Below are positions 8,117-64,000 of a stretch of 64,000 nucleotides of DNA, piece by piece. This stretch comes from Candidatus Onthovivens merdipullorum (GTDB lineage: Bacteria > Bacillota_I > Bacilli_A > RFN20 > CAG-826). The notes below the pieces were generated by a model. It was not told the origin of the DNA and searched no databases. It saw only the letters and a program-made list of their open reading frames with translations. A program made the translations under genes and the position numbers. Numbering within the stretch: the first letter of the stretch is position 1; each line of letters begins with the position of its first letter. Where the stretch lies: the NCBI GenBank assembly GCA_017694345.1, contig JADIMY010000117.1, positions 17,865 through 81,864 of the forward strand, in the 5' to 3' direction.

Positions 8117-8921
8117 AGGAGTATTATACTTAGTTCCTACTCCAATTGGTAATATTAAAGATATAAGTGAAAGAGCTAAAGAAGTTTTTAGCTCAGTGAG
8201 TTATATTGCTTGTGAAGACACAAGAGTAACTTCAAAACTACTAAGTTTACTTAATATAAAAAATAAAACTTTTTCTTGTCATGAACATAACGAAATTGAA
8301 GCGAGTAATAAAATAATAAAAGATTTACTAGATGGTTTAGATGTTGCTTATTCTAGTGATGCAGGAATGCCATGTATTAGTGATCCAGGCGAAAAACTTG
8401 TAAAAGCCTGTATAAAAAATGGCATTAATGTTGTTCCTTTACCTGGTTCAAACGCTGCTCTAACGGCTTTAATTGCTAGTGGATTTAACACTTCACACTT
8501 CTATTTTTATGGCTTCTTAGATTCCAAAAATAGTAAAAAAAGTGAAGAATTGCATGGTTTAATAAAAATTAAAGACCCAATTGTTTTCTATGAATCACCA
8601 TTAAGAGTCAATGAAACCCTTAAAGAAATATATAGTGTTTTTGGAAATAGAAAAATTGTTATAGTTAGAGAACTTACTAAAATTTATGAAGAATTCATCC
8701 GAAGTGATTTAGAAGCTTTAATTAAGGAAAATAGAGTTTATAAAGGTGAAATTGTTTTAATTATTGAAGGTAATAATAAGGAAGAAAAAATAAATATAGA
8801 AGAAAAATTTGAAAAATTAAAAGCTAATAATTTTTCAAATAAAGATATAACGATTATTTTAAGTACTTTATATAAAATTAGTAAAAACGAAATTAAAAAA
8901 TATCTACTAGAAAATAACTAA
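8091..8921 (+). CDS. rsmI: 16S rRNA (cytidine1402-2'-O)-methyltransferase
   Basis: It has the tetrapyrrole-methylase-like fold (LYLVPTPIGN...) and the SDAGMPCISDPG motif. The start may lie a little downstream of the track's ATG, which overlaps yaaT by 26 nt. Confidence 0.85.
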   Translation: MQNKQVKNKGVLYLVPTPIGNIKDISERAKEVFSSVSYIACEDTRVTSKLLSLLNIKNKTFSCHEHNEIEASNKIIKDLLDGLDVAYSSDAGMPCISDPGEKLVKACIKNGINVVPLPGSNAALTALIASGFNTSHFYFYGFLDSKNSKKSEELHGLIKIKDPIVFYESPLRVNETLKEIYSVFGNRKIVIVRELTKIYEEFIRSDLEALIKENRVYKGEIVLIIEGNNKEEKINIEEKFEKLKANNFSNKDITIILSTLYKISKNEIKKYLLENN

Positions 8922-8925
8922 TTAA

Positions 8926-9282
8926 CTACTTGTCTTCTCCTTCATCTTCTTCTTTTATAGTTACTGGCGATAAACCATAAACTTTTTCAAGCGGTTGACT
9001 AAAAACAATGCCTTGTCCAGGAGTCTCTAATCCTGCAGCTTTATAAATAGAATTCATTACTTTTTCACATATTTCGTTATTAACAATAATTAAAACTATT
9101 TCTTTTTCGTTTTGAATAGGAACACCATAAAATTTTTCTAAATCAATATTCCCTGTCCCTCTAGCGTGGAGCGTCGTTCCACCTCTTGCTCCTGCATTTC
9201 TTGCTCCTTCCATTACTAAGTCAGTATTACCATTATTTACAATAGCTATAATTAAACTATATTTAATTTCTTCGTTTTCCAT
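8926..9282 (-). CDS. PII-like signal-transduction protein (DarA/DUF970-like)
   Basis: The 118-aa ORF has two PII-like beta-alpha-beta halves (IIAIVNNGN...ARGGTTLHARGTG; GQGIVFSQPLEKV) resembling the c-di-AMP receptor DarA/GlnB fold. Confidence 0.55.
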   Translation of the reverse strand: MENEEIKYSLIIAIVNNGNTDLVMEGARNAGARGGTTLHARGTGNIDLEKFYGVPIQNEKEIVLIIVNNEICEKVMNSIYKAAGLETPGQGIVFSQPLEKVYGLSPVTIKEEDEGEDK

Positions 9283-9285
9283 TAT

Positions 9286-9726
9286 CTATTTCTCCTTTTT
9301 AATATTGATCTTAGTATCAGTTAAAAATCTATACATTAAGACACTAGCAATCGAATTAAGTTTAGAAGTGAAAACTACTCCATTAGCATTTCTAGAAATC
9401 TTAAATCGATCTTCACAAACTTTAAATATAGGTTCAACAATATCTTCTTTAACTAAAGCAAAAACAATATCTTTTTTAGCTTCTCCTATTCCTAATAATT
9501 CATAAATTTCTACACTAGCAGTTCCATTTCCATTAACTAAAAAAGCAGTAGAAACATTAAAAGTATTTATTAAAGTTTTGATATAAAAATCTCCTTGTCC
9601 TTTATTTACAATAATACATAAAAGTTTTAAAGGAGTTACCTTATATTCATTATCATAAGGCGTAGTTTTTATATTTTTTTCTTTTGTTTTTGCTATTTTT
9701 TGTTCATTTATTTTCTTTTTAAACAT
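9286..9726 (-). CDS. PII-like signal-transduction protein (DarA-like), second copy
   Basis: The 146-aa ORF follows the DarA pattern (KLLCIIVNKGQGDFYIKTLINTFNVSTAFLVNGNGTAS). It lies 4 nt from the other PII-like gene. Confidence 0.5.
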   Translation of the reverse strand: MFKKKINEQKIAKTKEKNIKTTPYDNEYKVTPLKLLCIIVNKGQGDFYIKTLINTFNVSTAFLVNGNGTASVEIYELLGIGEAKKDIVFALVKEDIVEPIFKVCEDRFKISRNANGVVFTSKLNSIASVLMYRFLTDTKINIKKEK

Positions 9727-33375: not shown

Positions 33376-33465
33376 GGAGAAATACCCAAGTGGTTTAAGG
33401 GGACGGTCTCGAAAACCGTTAGGAGTGAATAGCTCGCAGGGGTTCAAATCCCCTTTTCTCCGCCA
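33376..33465 (+). tRNA. tRNA-Ser (anticodon CGA)
   Basis: It has a GGAGAAA/TTTCTCC acceptor stem, a CTCGAAA anticodon loop, a long variable arm, the TTCAAAT T-loop and an encoded CCA. Confidence 0.9.
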
Positions 33466-52777: not shown

Positions 52778-52808
52778 TAAAAATAATTGAGTTTTGCTTG
52801 GTTTTTAA
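52778..52808 (-). repeat. copy c of the ~30-bp motif, reverse orientation
   Basis: The reverse complement is TTAAAAACCAAGCAAAACTCAATTATTTTTA. Its TTA is the stop codon of the gene at 52805. Confidence 0.6.
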
Positions 52809-53284
52809 TCAAATAAACCTTTATATTCACTTTTTAATTCTTTAATTAAATTCTCTTTTTGAAGATCATTTAATTTATCATCTTCATTAGCATATTTATT
52901 TGAAGTTAGTTCGTGATAAATAAGAAAAATAACATTGATAAGTGTTATTAAACAAATAAAGGAAAGATTAAAAATAGAAAATAAATTAAATAAATGTTCG
53001 TTAGTAAAATTAAAAACACAACTAAAAACAATTAATATCAATAATATGAATGAACACATAATATCAAAAACAAAAACTTTACTTAAATATTTTATATGAA
53101 TGCAAGTATTGATATTATTATCTTTTTTATATAGTTTATTTAATCTACTTTCTTTCTTTAATAAGAATTTTCTCAAATAAACTAAAGAAACTTTGCTACC
53201 TTTAGGTAAACCACTATTAATAAAATATTTATATGTTAACCATAAGAAGAATATAATAAATAAAATCCAAATTAAATTAATCAT
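52805..53284 (-). CDS. small 4-TM membrane protein, hypothetical
   Basis: The 159-aa ORF has its 3' 135 nt duplicated at 59310..59444. Confidence 0.5.
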   Translation of the reverse strand: MINLIWILFIIFFLWLTYKYFINSGLPKGSKVSLVYLRKFLLKKESRLNKLYKKDNNINTCIHIKYLSKVFVFDIMCSFILLILIVFSCVFNFTNEHLFNLFSIFNLSFICLITLINVIFLIYHELTSNKYANEDDKLNDLQKENLIKELKSEYKGLFD

Positions 53285-58445: not shown

Positions 58446-58874
58446 ATGAAAAAATTTATTATACCTTCAATTATTTATGCAATACTTGGTGCTTTAGGTG
58501 GAGTATTTTATAGAGAATTTACCAAAGCGATAGGATTTACTAACGAAACCTCTTTAAGCGTAGTTCATACACATTATTTAATATTAGGTATGATTATGTT
58601 TTTAATACTTTTGCTATTTGAAAAATCATTTTCTTTTAGTGATAAGAAAACAAATATTACATTAATCTTTTATCATATTGGATTAAATATAACCGGTGTA
58701 ATGCTATTTGTTAGAGGAATTTTAGAAGTACTAAATACTAATTTATCAAGTGGAATAAATGCAATGATTTCAGGAATAGCTGGAATAGGACACTTAATTC
58801 TAGGTGTTTCTTTAGTTTTAATTTTAATTTTCTTAGCAATAAAACTTTTTAAAAACAGTAAAGCAAGTAACTAA
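58446..58874 (+). CDS. small 4-TM membrane protein, hypothetical
   Basis: The 142-aa ORF has AAGGAGG upstream. Confidence 0.5.
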   Translation: MKKFIIPSIIYAILGALGGVFYREFTKAIGFTNETSLSVVHTHYLILGMIMFLILLLFEKSFSFSDKKTNITLIFYHIGLNITGVMLFVRGILEVLNTNLSSGINAMISGIAGIGHLILGVSLVLILIFLAIKLFKNSKASN

Positions 58875-58911
58875 AATTAATAAAAATAATTAGGATTTTG
58901 TCGTTATCTAA

Positions 58912-59294
58912 AGCAATTTATCCTGTTTTGCACAGGTTGCTTCATAAATATTATGTCGTGTTTTGAAGTTTTTGTAAGCTTCATAAATTATTTTTTTCAC
59001 AAATACATATTTTCTAGTTTTTCACGAATGTTTTCTTCGCTTATTTTTTTGTTTTTAAAAAATAAATCACGTATAACATTTGCAAGATCATTTATCGAAG
59101 AATAATCAATCATTAAATAATATTCATAAACTAGAGAACAAAGATGCTCAAAAATTTAATCATTTCTCTCTTTTACATACTCTCTAATTAAAATATCCAC
59201 TTCATTTGCTATAAATAGTTTAGTTATATTTAATTCTTGTTTCTTTGCAACATTTAGTAATTCTAAATATTTCTTTTTCTATTATTCCTTTCAT
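58912..59294 (-). pseudogene. degraded ORF remnant with frameshifts
   Basis: About 125 codons of helical-protein-like sequence (MKGIIEKE / KKYLELLNVAKKQELNITKLFIANEVDILIREYVKERND / IFEHLCSLVYEYYLMIDYSSINDLANVIRDLFFKNKKISEENIREKLENMYL / KKIIYEAYKNFKTRHNIYEATCAKQDKLL) are spread over three frames. The frame breaks fall at A/T homopolymers. Confidence 0.3.
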
Positions 59295-59309
59295 TGTTGC
59301 TTTTACACA

Positions 59310-59444
59310 ATCAATGTTATTTTTCTTATTTATCACGAACTAACTTCAAATAAATATGCTAACGAAGACGATAAATTAAATGATCTTCAAAAAGAGAATT
59401 TAATTAAAGAATTAAAAAGTGAATATAAAGGTTTATTTGATTAA
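59310..59444 (+). pseudogene. orphan 3' fragment duplicating the last 44 codons of gene 52805..53284
   Basis: There are 133/135 nt identical and both differences are synonymous. The encoded peptide INVIFLIYHELTSNKYANEDDKLNDLQKENLIKELKSEYKGLFD is identical, with no start or N-terminal part. Confidence 0.6.
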
Positions 59445-59471
59445 AAAGCCTGCAAAACTAAAATATTTTTT
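59441..59471 (+). repeat. copy e of the ~30-bp motif
   Basis: The sequence TTAAAAAGCCTGCAAAACTAAAATATTTTTT spans from the stop of the orphan fragment to the stop of the DUF2075 gene. Confidence 0.6.
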
Positions 59472-61330
59472 TAATTTTTGTTTAATTTTTCTTTTAAATA
59501 ATTTCTTAATGCTTCATCTTCACAATAAATGTAGCAACCTTTAATTCCTCTAGTTAAAAGTACTTTGTAAGTTCTTCTAATTAGTTTATCAGCTTCTTCA
59601 TTTGAAGTACTTTTTAATCTAATTCCACTTGTCTTATCATCTTTTGATATTGCATTACGGTTTGTTTGTACATGTCCATCTTTATAATAGAGATCTTTAC
59701 CAATAATAATGCCGACATAATCAAATTCCATTCCTTGACATGTATGAATACAACCAACTTCTTCAAAAGAATTAGGATTTACTGCCCAATGGTCATCGTT
59801 AGCTAAATTCCATTTTGCTTTAAAACCATTTGGAAGTATGATATCCCATTCGCCTTTTTTATTTTTTACATTCCAATCATAACAATAACCTGCAATCATT
59901 CTAGTTTTGTTATTTATTTTATTTAATTCTCTTAATTCATCTCTCATTTTGATAGGATCATCAAAAACCTTAACTTTAAGATTATTAAATTCAAAATTTG
60001 TATTAGCTGTTTGCTTAATTTCTAATAAATTATTTAAAAAAGAAATATAACCATCACTTCCATCACATCTAAATTGAGAAGTTAATTCATAAGGTTTATG
60101 AATAATTGCATTTTCATTTTTAGCATACATAATAATTGAATTTACATCATATTTATCATTAATAGTAATTCTTTGGTCATCATCAACAAAAAATATTGAA
60201 ACTTTACTTGCTTTAATAGCGTCTTCAAGCATATCATTACCTAAATATCTATAAGGTTTCTTTTGCATACGATGTGCTTCATCAAAAATACCTACATCAA
60301 GTCCGTTATATATCGTATTAGGTAAACACCATGGAGATTGAATTGCTTTTTGAAGGTTAACCATCTTTTTAGCATTACCTTTTGCTAATAAGTTAGCATA
60401 ACACTTTCTTGGAGCCATATTTTTTGTTATATAAGAGGTATTTAGTTTTAAATCTATAATACATCTAGCTAATATATTAATTGCTAAAACTGATTTCCCA
60501 GTTCCTGGCCCCCCAGTAATTATAAGAACATGCTTCCTAGTGTCATTTTGAGATTCTTTGATTGCTTTCATAATTTTATCATAAGCAACTACTTGTTCAT
60601 CAATCATATGAAATTCTTCATTTCCACAAAGCATTGAATCTAAGGCATCTTGAAGAGATTTAGTAGGTTTTAATCTTCCTTCTTCAATTTTATAAAGTAA
60701 AGAACCATCATTTGCTTTTAACTTTATATAATTTTTAACAAAGTTTCTTAATTTTAAAACATCACTTTGTAAAAATACTGGCGCTTCTTCTATCCATTCA
60801 TGATATAAATTATCTTCGATTATAGGACGATATTCTTCACTTAAATTGTGCAAATATGCACATGGTTTTAATGTCTTATTATTAATTGAAACTGAATCAT
60901 TAGAATAATCTAATATTAATTGTTTATAAGAATAAGCTTGATAAGAAGGATGAGCAACAGGTTCATGACTTCTTAAATCAGACATTATTGAATGATCACA
61001 ATTATCATCAACTTTATTAACTCTAGCCCATTGTTTTAATTCAATAATAACGACATGGTCTTCTGTATTATTATTGCCCATAATCATAAAATCAACACGT
61101 TTAGAAGTTTGAGGAATATTATATTCAATAGCAACTTGACATTCGTTATCAAAATAAGAATCATCTAAAACATCTTTCATAAAGTGTAAAGAATTATTCC
61201 GTGAATTTATTTCACTGGCTGATCCTCCACTTAAACCTTTCTCTCTAAGTGTTTTTAAAAGAATGCTTTGCATCGTATTAAAAGTAACATCAGTTCTAAA
61301 ATCTTTTAATGACTTATTATAAATAATCAT
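59471..61330 (-). CDS. DUF2075-type protein: N-terminal PD-(D/E)xK-like nuclease motif + P-loop SF1-like helicase/ATPase domain
   Basis: The 619-aa ORF has the nuclease-like motif VDFMIMG...IIELKQW. It also has Walker A (ITGGPGTGKS), Walker B (IFDEAH) and further helicase-like motifs. Confidence 0.7.
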   Translation of the reverse strand: MIIYNKSLKDFRTDVTFNTMQSILLKTLREKGLSGGSASEINSRNNSLHFMKDVLDDSYFDNECQVAIEYNIPQTSKRVDFMIMGNNNTEDHVVIIELKQWARVNKVDDNCDHSIMSDLRSHEPVAHPSYQAYSYKQLILDYSNDSVSINNKTLKPCAYLHNLSEEYRPIIEDNLYHEWIEEAPVFLQSDVLKLRNFVKNYIKLKANDGSLLYKIEEGRLKPTKSLQDALDSMLCGNEEFHMIDEQVVAYDKIMKAIKESQNDTRKHVLIITGGPGTGKSVLAINILARCIIDLKLNTSYITKNMAPRKCYANLLAKGNAKKMVNLQKAIQSPWCLPNTIYNGLDVGIFDEAHRMQKKPYRYLGNDMLEDAIKASKVSIFFVDDDQRITINDKYDVNSIIMYAKNENAIIHKPYELTSQFRCDGSDGYISFLNNLLEIKQTANTNFEFNNLKVKVFDDPIKMRDELRELNKINNKTRMIAGYCYDWNVKNKKGEWDIILPNGFKAKWNLANDDHWAVNPNSFEEVGCIHTCQGMEFDYVGIIIGKDLYYKDGHVQTNRNAISKDDKTSGIRLKSTSNEEADKLIRRTYKVLLTRGIKGCYIYCEDEALRNYLKEKLNKN

Positions 61331-61647
61331 AATTTAGTATATTTATTTGCTTTTCCTTTACACTTCTCTATTGGATATTTTAATTCGTTTTTATCTAATT
61401 TATTATTAATAATTTCATCTTCATCTAAATTAAGAACATCTAACATATTTTGACAATAAATTAATACATCCGCTAACTCATCTTTAACTTCATTTACATC
61501 AAAATCATTTTCATTCCATTGAAAACATTCTAATAATTCATTAGCCTCAATACTAATTGATTTTGCTAAATTTGCAGGATTATGAAATTTATCCCGATCT
61601 CTTTCTTTGGAAAATTTTCTAATTCTATCTTTTGAATTTTTGTTCAT
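61327..61647 (-). CDS. MazG-like nucleotide pyrophosphohydrolase (small all-alpha NTP-PPase)
   Basis: The 106-aa ORF has the pattern SIEANELLECFQW...ELADVLIYCQNMLDVLNLDEDEII typical of the YpjD/MazG-like family. It overlaps the DUF2075 gene by 4 nt. Confidence 0.6.
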   Translation of the reverse strand: MNKNSKDRIRKFSKERDRDKFHNPANLAKSISIEANELLECFQWNENDFDVNEVKDELADVLIYCQNMLDVLNLDEDEIINNKLDKNELKYPIEKCKGKANKYTKL

Positions 61648-61785
61648 ATGAAAATTGTAATCTTTTTAGGCAAAAAAATCATTAATTGAGTTTCAGTTTA
61701 CATTTTCAAACAAAATTAAGTAAAAAGTTATTATTGATTTTTACATTAAAAATTAAATTATTTTTCAAAAAAGTCATGTTTTTTT

Positions 61786-61817
61786 ATAAAAAGCTTGCAA
61801 AACTCAACTATTATTTT
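61786..61817 (+). repeat. copy f of the ~30-bp motif
   Basis: The sequence TATAAAAAGCTTGCAAAACTCAACTATTATTTT has a partial inverted copy (AATTGAGTTTCAG) at 61688..61702. Confidence 0.55.
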
Positions 61818-62064
61818 CTATAAATCTAATGGTGCTTTTATAACAAATTTATATATCAATTTAATTTAAGAAATATTAGCAAATCCGATTTCAGTATTTT
61901 CTCTTTCATCTTTTATCACAAAAAAATAGTGAAATAAACAAGTTTTATCACATTTTATGAGCGAATAAATTAACAATAGTCACATTATATGAGCCAATCA
62001 TAAAATTAAAAATATGTTTTTAATTAAGCAAGTTCTATAAACTTTCATATATCTAATTAATATT

Positions 62065-64000
62065 TTATTCTTCAAATAAACTCATTTGTTCAAATGCTTC
62101 ATCTAAATTGTGTATTTTCCCAATTGTAAATTCAAATAAACCAATAATTGATTCATAATCTTTAACTGCACTATTAGGTATTCTAATTAGTTTAATATTA
62201 TATTTAGCACAGATTTCTTCTTTTTTTCTATCTCTAAGAGCAGTTTCTTTACTACCAACATGCTCACCACCATCAATTTCAAAAACAACTATTGTTTTAT
62301 ATTGACGATTAAACAGGCCTCCACTAACTTGAACTATAACATCAAATTCTTTCATACCTATTTCTTTATGGTCAAAATAATTTACATTTTTAATAGCTTT
62401 TTCTACAAGGACGTTTCTTTCAATTCTAAATTTAGAACCTCGACGATTAAAATAAGGTTTAATAGTTTCAAAAAACTCCCTTTCGCTTTTTGAATCATTT
62501 GAAAAATCATAATTAATAACTGCTTCACTTTGAGTAACACTAATTTCTCCGTTACTAAAAACATAATCTGAAAGAGCTTTAATATCATTAGTGTCGTTTT
62601 TACTTAAGGCATCTATTGCTTCTTTATCTCCAACAAAAATAAATCTATTTTTTGCTCTAGTAACCGCAACATTAATTAATTCATAATTATTTTTAATCCA
62701 ACCCATTGTTCTTTTTGCAGTTTTTAAAGATAAAGCTGAAGACATAATAATTACTGATTTTTCTGAACCTTGTAAGGTATGAACTGTACCGGCTTTAACA
62801 TCTTCAATCCCAAATTGTTCTAAATATTCATTAATTAAAGCTGCTTGATTAACAAATGGGGTTATTATTCCAACATCCTTATAATTATTTTCTTTAATAA
62901 TTTTTGCTATTTCATAAGCCTCTTCATTATAGGAATTTCTTAATTTAGCCTTAGAAGTATTTTGAACATTTACATAAACTAAATCACCTAAATTTTCATT
63001 AAGTAACTTAAGTTGTTTCTCATAAAATCTTTGATTAACAAAACTTGCAATTCTTTTACCGCATCGATAATGGTATCTTAATAAGATACATTTCGAATTA
63101 TTATCTTTCCTTAACATTAAAGAAAGAATTGAATTTCTAACATAGTTATATTCTTTACTAATGTTATATTTATTCATTAAATCAAGGTTAACATCATTTT
63201 CAATTACCGTAACTGGTTGAAGCTGATTTGTATCTCCTACTAATAATAAATTTTCTCCTCTAACAATAGGAATTAATGAAAATGCAATATTGCATTGTCC
63301 TGCTTCATCCATTATTACTAAATCAAAATGATTAGTTGCGCTTCCTAGCTTTTCTGAAGATAAATTAGTAGATAAAATAATAGGAAAAATAGACAAAAAA
63401 CGTCTTAAATTCAAGTTATTTTTTAAAAATTTATTAAATTTAGAAACTGCAATATTCTCATCTTCAAGTACAATAATTTCCCTTAATTCCTTAAAAGTTG
63501 GACCTAATAGTTTTTTATATCTTAAAATTGATGAGTAATATAAAAAGTTATGAAAATCTAAATCATCAAAGACTGATTTTGTACATTTAAATATATCTTT
63601 ATCAGTAATATTTTTACTTGTGTTTAGTTTATATTTATAAAGTTTAAGTTCAGATTCTAATTTCTCATTAATTTGATTAATCGATATAAAATCTTTTAAT
63701 TTTCCAAGAGTATTGATACGCTCTTCTAAATCTAATTTATTTTCATATTCTATTAGTAACTTTTTAAGTTCATTAAAGTTTGATAATGATTTATTTTTAT
63801 TATCTTCAATTAGATTATCATATGTCTTTACATCTTGATTTTTTGATATATAAGTAAGTAATTCTTTTAACTTTTTAATCGTGTCAAGCATTTCAATATT
63901 ATTTCCAATACGAATCATTGGAAAAATAATTTCTTGACTACTATTTTTAAATTTAAAAGACTCAATCATCTTTTTATAAATATCAATGACAGGATGATTG
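62065..64000 (-). CDS. SF1B (Upf1-like) helicase with C-terminal DUF559/Vsr-like endonuclease domain, N-terminus outside the window
   Basis: It has helicase motifs DEAGQ, GDTNQLQP, a Q-motif region, TVHTLQGSEK and VAVTRAK. The C-terminal ~120 aa are DUF559-like (VVFEIDGGEH). The reading frame stays open to position 64000 and no Walker A lies in the window. Confidence 0.7.
   Translation of the reverse strand, partial: NHPVIDIYKKMIESFKFKNSSQEIIFPMIRIGNNIEMLDTIKKLKELLTYISKNQDVKTYDNLIEDNKNKSLSNFNELKKLLIEYENKLDLEERINTLGKLKDFISINQINEKLESELKLYKYKLNTSKNITDKDIFKCTKSVFDDLDFHNFLYYSSILRYKKLLGPTFKELREIIVLEDENIAVSKFNKFLKNNLNLRRFLSIFPIILSTNLSSEKLGSATNHFDLVIMDEAGQCNIAFSLIPIVRGENLLLVGDTNQLQPVTVIENDVNLDLMNKYNISKEYNYVRNSILSLMLRKDNNSKCILLRYHYRCGKRIASFVNQRFYEKQLKLLNENLGDLVYVNVQNTSKAKLRNSYNEEAYEIAKIIKENNYKDVGIITPFVNQAALINEYLEQFGIEDVKAGTVHTLQGSEKSVIIMSSALSLKTAKRTMGWIKNNYELINVAVTRAKNRFIFVGDKEAIDALSKNDTNDIKALSDYVFSNGEISVTQSEAVINYDFSNDSKSEREFFETIKPYFNRRGSKFRIERNVLVEKAIKNVNYFDHKEIGMKEFDVIVQVSGGLFNRQYKTIVVFEIDGGEHVGSKETALRDRKKEEICAKYNIKLIRIPNSAVKDYESIIGLFEFTIGKIHNLDEAFEQMSLFEE

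Follow-up and report, generated by a model that had tools for sequence, protein, structure and literature searches.

Two overlapping genes lie on the minus strand of a 64,000-nucleotide stretch of contig JADIMY010000117.1 from Candidatus Onthovivens merdipullorum; this whole stretch, at its full length, is called the window below. The upstream gene (positions 61327 to 61647) encodes a MazG-like protein of 106 amino acids that is related, according to Pfam, PDB matches and residue conservation, to the all-alpha nucleoside triphosphate (NTP) pyrophosphohydrolases of the DCTPP1/RS21-C6 type. The downstream gene (59471 to 61330) encodes a 619-amino acid protein of the DUF2075 family, for which Pfam, PADLOC, an alignment of homologues and an AlphaFold2 (AF2) model indicate a nuclease-helicase with an Nhi-like architecture. 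The stop codon of the first gene and the start codon of the second share an ATGA (61327 to 61330, read from the sequence), and this 4-nucleotide overlap is consistent with translational coupling of the two genes. The overlap also occurs in the copies of the pair on contigs L168 and L170, and a gap of -3 is found in many other loci. An initial annotation of this DNA had given the same coordinates and overlap and had assigned both genes to one operon. The list of open reading frames (ORFs) and our direct reading of the sequence agree with it on these points, the ATGA overlap being the evidence for the operon.

The G+C content of the window is ~26%, which prompted us to consider genetic code 4. 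This possibility was dropped because table 11 yields intact ORFs, in which TGG encodes tryptophan. A scan of positions 58800 to 62200 for promoter and terminator consensus sequences was uninformative, because promoter-like matches were rarer than in shuffled sequence.

The 106-amino acid protein matches Pfam family PF12643 with 53.1 bits, against a cut-off of 27 bits (E = 3.8e-14). Used as a single query against the PDB, it matches an archaeal "pyrophosphatase" (4qgp, 3.5e-17) and mouse and human DCTPP1, or RS21-C6 (3.4e-12). A profile built from 37 partner proteins, i.e., MazG-like proteins encoded beside homologues of the large protein, gives 4e-32 for 4qgp and 6e-30 for DCTPP1. The next family is that of the dimeric dUTPases (1.5e-8), and classical MazG-type proteins follow at 1e-5 or worse. 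With DCTPP1/RS21-C6 and 4qgp the window protein shares the PF12643 fold family, the ExxE(xxE)...ExxD metal site, and the FH..., FQW and KYP motifs. The acids expected to bind metal, E34, E37, E40, E57 and D60, are all present and are 96 to 100% conserved among 53 partner proteins. By sequence, the first gene product can thus be assigned to the all-alpha NTP pyrophosphohydrolases of the DCTPP1 type, and its predicted metal-binding site is intact. DCTPP1 itself hydrolyses dCTP, and especially 5-modified dCTPs such as 5-methyl-dCTP (PMC4491611, PMC10742078). No family among the PADLOC defence-system hidden Markov models (HMMs) matches the MazG-like protein at E <= 0.01.

Unlike DCTPP1, the window protein is a prokaryotic, minimal form of ~106 amino acids that is encoded in a defence-island operon, and it lacks a tryptophan at position 18. 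This position aligns with a pocket residue of RS21-C6, the equivalent of mouse W47 (numbering from the alignment). Of the aromatic pocket residues, the window copy has H22 and W44, whereas residue 18 is arginine (CGG, 61594 to 61596). Tryptophan (TGG) occupies this position in 96% of partner proteins and in a 94%-identical relative (P0121), so that W18R amounts to a single T>C codon change relative to these proteins.

The large protein matches PF09848, the DUF2075/SLFN-g3 helicase family, with 299.6 bits against a cut-off of 24 bits (4.7e-89), and residues 266 to 605 cover profile positions 1 to 354 of 354. This match and that of the small protein to PF12643 bear out the domain calls of the initial annotation. 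The superfamily 1B (SF1B) helicase/ATPase domain thus delimited corresponds to positions 59516 to 60535 on the minus strand. We aligned the protein with 58 representatives of 26 to 49% identity, and found that its helicase part contains invariant residues in Walker A (G276-T-G-K279, within GGPGTGKS at 273 to 280) and Walker B (D350-E351), as well as Q386, R421, Q532 and R594. Helicase-type ATPase motifs had been reported before, and their invariance in homologues supports that report. Fold comparison of the model with Foldseek returned RecD2, RecD, SLFN11, Dna2 and Dda for the helicase, with E-values from 1e-8 to 2e-11 for RecD2, Dda, Dna2 and SLFN11.

In the N-terminal third, the same alignment shows invariant E69, R78, D80, E97, K99, W101, H127, P128 and Y135. 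The arrangement E...D...ExK, in which D80 is followed by E97-x-K99, is the catalytic pattern of PD-(D/E)xK nucleases. The VDF...ELK signature noted in the initial annotation corresponds to D80, E97 and K99. That annotation had also proposed that an absence of conserved nuclease residues would speak against the assignment, and these three residues and E69 are invariant across the homologues. Sequence searches failed to name the N-terminal domain, and fold comparison was therefore needed: against Pfam it gave only sub-threshold matches to NERD, HSDR_N_2 and PDDEXK_9 (E ~0.1), and a profile search of the PDB gave none. AF2 models of the full-length protein (predicted local distance difference test [pLDDT] 90.7, predicted template modelling score [pTM] 0.90) and of residues 1 to 238 (pLDDT 91.7) were used. 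The nuclease domain, encoded at positions 60617 to 61330 with catalytic-type residues E69, D80, E97 and K99, has fold matches to Can2, NgoMIV, NucC, Shedu and McrC. Judged by these models, the second gene product is an N-terminal PD-(D/E)xK nuclease fused to an SF1B helicase of the RecD2/Dda/Dna2/Schlafen type. We did not find a recognizable modified-base-binding domain in the DUF2075 protein.

PADLOC models PDC-S41, AbiO and Nhi match the large protein in the helicase region only. The Nhi match (1.6e-16) is confined to profile positions 181 to 433 of 470, which is the helicase part. In a profile comparison, hhalign aligns the protein to the validated Nhi-like protein SG141 across both nuclease and helicase (probability 99%, E = 9.5e-18, ~21% identity). 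Nhi (S. epidermidis SERP2475, Bari et al.) and Nhi-like SG141 (Bacillus cereus FSL H8-0482) share with the window protein the PD-(D/E)xK nuclease and the DUF2075 SF1B helicase. Both are validated anti-phage proteins that work as single genes (SG141, Millman et al. 2022), whereas the window family usually adds a pyrophosphatase partner. Given the ~21% identity, and an Nhi model in PADLOC that misses the N-terminal domain, the window protein belongs by sequence to a distinct family that has the architecture and superfamily of Nhi-like proteins.

A search among homologues for a MazG-DUF2075 fusion, which would serve as a Rosetta stone for a joint function, found none; the longer homologues end instead in a C-terminal Peptidase_S24 or PIF1 domain. 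The LexA/UmuD-type Peptidase_S24 domain, ~180 amino acids in length, is present in ~20% of the nuclease-helicase homologues, and suggests that autocleavage triggered by RecA* or single-stranded DNA may be a control step in those lineages. Homologues with this domain include P0242, P0244, P0246 and P0251, and it is encoded at loci L029, L032, L046, L048, L049, L056, L057, L060, L062, L063, L066, L068, L069, L073, L080 and L084.

Conservation of the pair was assessed in 80 genome loci that were anchored on the large protein and drawn from one-genome-per-species contigs. They span Firmicutes, Bacteroidota, Proteobacteria, Verrucomicrobiota, Planctomycetota, Chloroflexota, Spirochaetes, Candidate Phyla Radiation (CPR) lineages and archaea. 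Partner genes were found by iterative HMM search of all ORFs in these loci. In the databases, each of the two proteins has ~8,000 close homologues that were scored. A MazG-like gene is adjacent on the same strand in 53 of the 80 loci, upstream in 39 and downstream in 14, with gaps of -40 to 471 nucleotides. Among the 63 loci that have at least 500 nucleotides on both flanks, 43 have an adjacent partner. Reciprocally, a DUF2075-type gene adjoins the MazG-like gene in ~46 of 80 MazG-anchored metagenome loci. At some of these the neighbour matches the DUF2075 protein only in the helicase part, implying other N-terminal domains. Because gene order flips while adjacency persists, a functional link is strongly argued. 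The initial annotation had reasoned that its proposal would fail if homologues of the two genes never adjoined in other genomes; adjacency and co-orientation in 53 loci dispose of that concern. A third conserved gene was sought across the loci and none was found, the neighbours being heterogeneous.

The two genes also move together. In contig L168, where the large protein is 97% identical, exactly the block from 59436 to 61684 of the window is shared (95.8% identity, blastn), with different genes on both flanks. The pair therefore acts as a separate, portable unit of 2.25 kb on the minus strand. Further copies of it are found on a Halalkalicoccus megaplasmid and in the record of Microcystis phage Mwe-JY31. 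Only five distant relatives were found among the candidate viral contigs examined, so the family is mainly cellular. The pair is thus a translationally coupled, widely conserved and mobile two-gene module. We consider it to be a single, horizontally mobile operon whose most likely role, at somewhat better than even confidence, is defence against phages and other mobile genetic elements (MGEs).

The pairing has been noticed before. Our literature search found no paper in which both DUF2075 and MazG are mentioned. A candidate system called "Pyrophosphatase", with constructs SG192 and SG193, is however listed in Table S2 of Millman et al. 2022 (bioRxiv 10.1101/2022.05.11.491447). SG192, from Bacillus firmus LK28, consists of a 98-amino acid pyrophosphatase and a 643-amino acid DUF2075 protein, and its observed defence is entered as "x"; cloning of SG193, from B. 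thuringiensis Lr3/2, failed. That study picked 45 candidates by their enrichment in defence islands, challenged them with 26 phages and validated 21, and its authors caution that unverified candidates may still defend under other conditions. The "Pyrophosphatase" candidate is neither named nor described in the main text. SG192 corresponds to the window in both genes and in their order. The window pyrophosphatase is 45% identical to its counterpart (E = 9e-25), and the DUF2075 protein is 43% identical over the 397 available residues, which include the nuclease domain (E = 2e-97). The two differ in host, a Bacillus as opposed to an uncultured, low-G+C gut Bacilli represented by a metagenome-assembled genome, and in the W18R change of the window copy. 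The view in the initial annotation that this is not a named system therefore stands, although the pair had already been shortlisted and assayed; it is unnamed and uncharacterized, but is not a new observation. In addition, DefensePredictor lists MazG, without a DUF2075 partner, among predicted defence domains that are unvalidated, and DUF2075 NTPase genes beside DUF3427 enzymes were noted earlier in a paper on Type IV modification-dependent restriction enzymes of the McaZI group, which have DUF3427 or SRA readers (PMC6765204).

Genes near the pair are typical of defence islands. Those beyond the end of the window were read from an 86-kb gut-metagenome contig in ENA (L001), which is 100% identical to the window over 14.5 kb. 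The gene next to the pair encodes an SF1 helicase (AAA_11/AAA_12) on the minus strand, and the 3' two-thirds of it lie within the window (62065 to 64000); the full protein has 1029 amino acids (L001 3321 to 6410). Its best PADLOC matches are to Mokosh MkoC (2.5e-57) and MkoA, in the helicase core only, and its C-terminus has a weak, sub-threshold resemblance in Pfam to the nuclease-like DUF2726. The initial annotation had called this gene another helicase-nuclease, of which the helicase is clear and the nuclease amounts to this weak C-terminal match. In L168 the helicase is shared as a separate block, and the three extra genes that part it from the pair indicate a separate unit, which is probably a single-gene defence candidate in its own right. 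At the far end of the island, beyond the window (L001 736 to 3230), three ThsB-like TIR proteins are encoded around a small membrane protein that matches PADLOC model PDC-M50A, and these genes constitute a candidate Thoeris-like system. Together, the MkoC/MkoA-like helicase, the three ThsB-like TIR genes and PDC-M50A bear out the description of this locus as a defence island.

Other copies of the pair have related surroundings. In L168, genes for DUF4238 and NERD proteins flank the pair, and a McrB_N-NOV_C protein is encoded two genes away. In L170, directly upstream of a copy of the pair with 84% identity, a 458-amino acid protein (8252 to 9628) combines an SRA domain, a ScoMcrA-type reader of modified cytosine, with a NudG/MutT-like NUDIX domain and NOV_C. 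We know of no earlier report of this SRA-NUDIX-NOV_C architecture. Flanking genes in other loci include Type I and Type IV restriction, HNH, Fic, Cas3 and AbiEi genes. In ~8 of the 80 loci, a PLD-helicase-DUF3427 protein that matches the PADLOC model for Type IV methyl-directed restriction enzymes (mREase_IV, 2.6e-249) is encoded within 5 kb of the pair; the window locus, by contrast, has no such SRA/DUF3427 reader gene. A 130-amino acid NUDIX hydrolase, unrelated to the MazG-like enzyme, is encoded within 5 kb in eight loci and usually accompanies the DUF3427 enzyme. In NCBIfam it matches best to NudG, a pyrimidine (d)NTP diphosphatase (1.3e-29), with MutT close behind. A second protein of ~105 amino acids (family F10; L006 200 to 511, and L023) is encoded near the pair together with NUDIX and DUF3427 genes; it has no Pfam match and by eye resembles another all-alpha NTP pyrophosphatase, of the COG4997-like kind.

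The initial annotation described the two genes as a cassette bracketed by direct copies of a motif. Two copies are indeed present on the plus strand. Copy "e" (AAAAAGCCTGCAAAACTAAAATATTTT, 59441 to 59470) lies directly 3' of the DUF2075 stop codon and accompanies the module in L168, and copy "f" (61787 to 61815) lies 140 nucleotides upstream of the MazG-like start codon and is missing from the L168 copy. The motif is ~27 to 30 nucleotides in length, with consensus AAAAAsCYTGCAAAWCTCAAnTATTTT, and occurs at least seven times in the 64 kb under strict criteria and about 11 to 13 times under looser ones. A degenerate pattern for it was observed six times, against 0.05 expected by chance. Approximate starts are 24915, 26798(-), 28063, 33517, 44214(-), 46823(-), 52779(-), 55612, 59441 and 61787. 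The copies are intergenic, typically within ~45 nucleotides of a stop codon, and are found in both orientations beside housekeeping genes, between tandem or convergent genes. No obvious hairpin is seen in the motif. When the window and the far end of the island were scanned with Rfam, the only match was a tRNA (33376 to 33462), and neither the motif nor the 63-nucleotide repeat described below matched a known RNA. Copies e and f are 87% alike, and either is 82 to 92% identical to distant copies. The bracket is therefore incidental, because the motif is widespread, e and f are not specially similar, and only the downstream copy is kept in L168. The two copies are real, but their proposed meaning as a cassette boundary is not sustained, and on the same grounds they are no evidence for an integron- or transposon-like cassette with specific end repeats.

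Other repeats surround the locus. The gene-remnant scar of the initial annotation is real. It is an inverted duplicate of 203 nucleotides, 89.7% identical, that lies at 59270 to 59470 on the plus strand and comprises the 3' end of a 159-amino acid ORF (52805 to 53284) plus the motif. The two inverted repeats (52779 to 52980 and 59270 to 59470) bracket a 6.3-kb housekeeping block with genes for PFK, AsnA, an OYE-type reductase, MntP and DUF2871, and may be either the trace of a past inversion or a substrate for one. A repeat of 63 nucleotides on the plus strand (58898 to 58960) has a direct copy, 93.7% identical, at L001 468 to 530, ~9 kb away and ~3.9 kb past the window end. These direct repeats flank the whole ~9-kb island, from the DUF2075 gene through the TIR genes, and are more suggestive of an insertion boundary than the motif is. 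The far copy borders on a locally GC-rich stretch without an Rfam match and, where the contig ends, on a gene that by eye resembles the helix-turn-helix (HTH) N-terminus of a transposase. An "empty site" was sought through an exact-protein look-up of the flanking DUF2871 gene, which yielded nothing beyond this contig itself and some short fragments.

If the pair is a defence module, its nuclease-helicase would be the effector. By analogy with Nhi, it might load on replication intermediates of phages or other foreign DNA and degrade them using ATP. For Nhi itself, the mutations of escaper phages map to the phage single-stranded DNA-binding protein (SSB). The pyrophosphatase could be an accessory that polices the deoxynucleoside triphosphate (dNTP) pool, converting non-canonical dNTPs, probably with 5-modified cytosine, to monophosphates. 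It might thereby deprive phages that hypermodify their DNA of a precursor. Alternatively, it might keep modified nucleotides released from degraded phage DNA out of the host DNA, averting self-attack by the modification-dependent nucleases that are often sited nearby. A role in handling modified dNTPs is suggested by the homology to DCTPP1, the recurring NUDIX proteins of NudG/MutT type, and the nearby SRA, DUF3427 and McrB_N readers. We offer the nucleotide specificity of the pyrophosphatase and the direction of this logic as hypotheses.

These elements can be combined in a more speculative reading, which we regard as doubtful. The DCTPP1-like enzyme would destroy modified dNTPs made by the phage, such as 5-hydroxymethyl-dCTP (5-hm-dCTP), 5-methyl-dCTP (5-me-dCTP) and hydroxymethyl-dUTP (hm-dUTP), and the Nhi-like nuclease-helicase would degrade the phage DNA thus exposed. 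Either the invading DNA would lose its protective hypermodification, or such bases would stay out of the host DNA. Some lineages would add SRA/DUF3427 readers and a NudG-like NUDIX protein, and others an S24 control that is sensitive to RecA*. With the same reserve, this might be an immune strategy that has yet to be demonstrated in bacteria.

Several observations weigh against a defence role for the pair as a unit. SG192, the sole orthologous pair that has been assayed, gave no defence against the panel of 26 phages. The initial annotation had proposed that a lack of restriction upon expression would count against its idea, and this outcome has been seen once, albeit for an orthologue and weakly, under heterologous conditions. 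Of the 63 well-flanked loci, 20 lack the pyrophosphatase, which is therefore dispensable for many homologues of the large protein. About 40% of close MazG-like homologues have other neighbours, e.g., an operon with a Y-family polymerase, so that the gene can also stand alone in a housekeeping role. Readers of modified cytosine and NUDIX proteins are associated with the pair in only ~10% of loci. Finally, W18R changes a predicted pocket residue that is 96% conserved, and the window pyrophosphatase may consequently be impaired or retuned. The operon is real and conserved, and its interpretation as a defence system is plausible but unproven.

The main rival, which we consider unlikely, is that the pair is a module for DNA repair or replication stress, in which fork or end processing of the Dna2 or RecD2 type is combined with dNTP sanitizing of the DCTPP1 or MutT type. 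Such a role is supported by the C-terminal S24 domain in about a fifth of homologues, which is a hallmark of SOS proteins controlled by RecA*, the Y-family polymerase genes that adjoin close MazG-like homologues, and the lack of phage defence by SG192. The repair helicase-nucleases RecD2, RecBCD RecD and Dna2 are also among the structural neighbours. A repair module is harder to reconcile with a patchy distribution across the domains of life, with the plasmid and phage occurrences, and with a 96%-identical module that sits between different, defence-rich neighbours in L168. Defence is also favoured by the homology to a validated Nhi-like protein and by the fact that Millman et al. picked this pair for testing as a defence candidate.

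A second rival retains immunity and changes its mechanism. By analogy to the dCTP deaminase and dGTPase defence systems, infection might unleash the pyrophosphatase, draining canonical dCTP or other dNTPs and starving phage replication. The trigger would perhaps be the helicase sensing phage DNA, so that the nuclease-helicase would be a sensor, a co-effector or both. We judge this model to be quite improbable. In its favour, the protein is of the DCTPP1 type, and DCTPP1 also hydrolyses unmodified dCTP (PMC4491611); partner proteins have kept the active site intact, and the tight translational coupling suggests a stoichiometric complex. However, the pyrophosphatase is missing from about a third of homologous loci, and it resembles a constitutive house-cleaning enzyme of ~100 amino acids with no obvious regulatory domain. 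The co-occurring NUDIX, SRA and DUF3427 proteins point to non-canonical nucleotides and not to canonical ones. In concept, the deaminase and dGTPase systems resemble the proposed action on the dNTP pool of infected cells. The MazG-like protein is, however, not homologous to known systems of dNTP depletion (PADLOC gave no match), and their chemistry is deamination or triphosphohydrolysis rather than pyrophosphohydrolysis, which here is coupled to a nuclease-helicase.

The initial annotation had also suggested alarmone cleavage coupled to the nuclease-helicase, in which case the substrate of the MazG-like protein would be an alarmone or other signalling nucleotide, e.g., (p)ppGpp, that controls the nuclease-helicase. 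E. coli MazG has been linked to (p)ppGpp, but no result of the analysis supports such a role for the present family. The closest characterized relatives of the window protein are dCTP pyrophosphatases, by ~22 orders of E-value, with classical MazG families at least 20 orders of magnitude worse, and the neighbourhoods contain no conserved nucleotide cyclase or synthetase; the suggestion thus fares poorly and is very improbable. That the two genes are unrelated and adjacent by chance, as the occurrence of each without the other might imply, is effectively refuted by their co-oriented adjacency in 53 of 80 loci, with either gene first and in archaea as well as many phyla, by frequent start/stop overlaps, and by their movement as a block.

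The function of the pair is directly testable, because both active sites are clearly defined. If the pair works as a defence, Nhi-type defences would gain a partner that polices the nucleotide pool and is homologous to human DCTPP1, and bacterial immunity would be tied to the biology of phage DNA hypermodification. The pair is very widespread, occurring in many bacterial phyla, in CPR lineages and in archaea.

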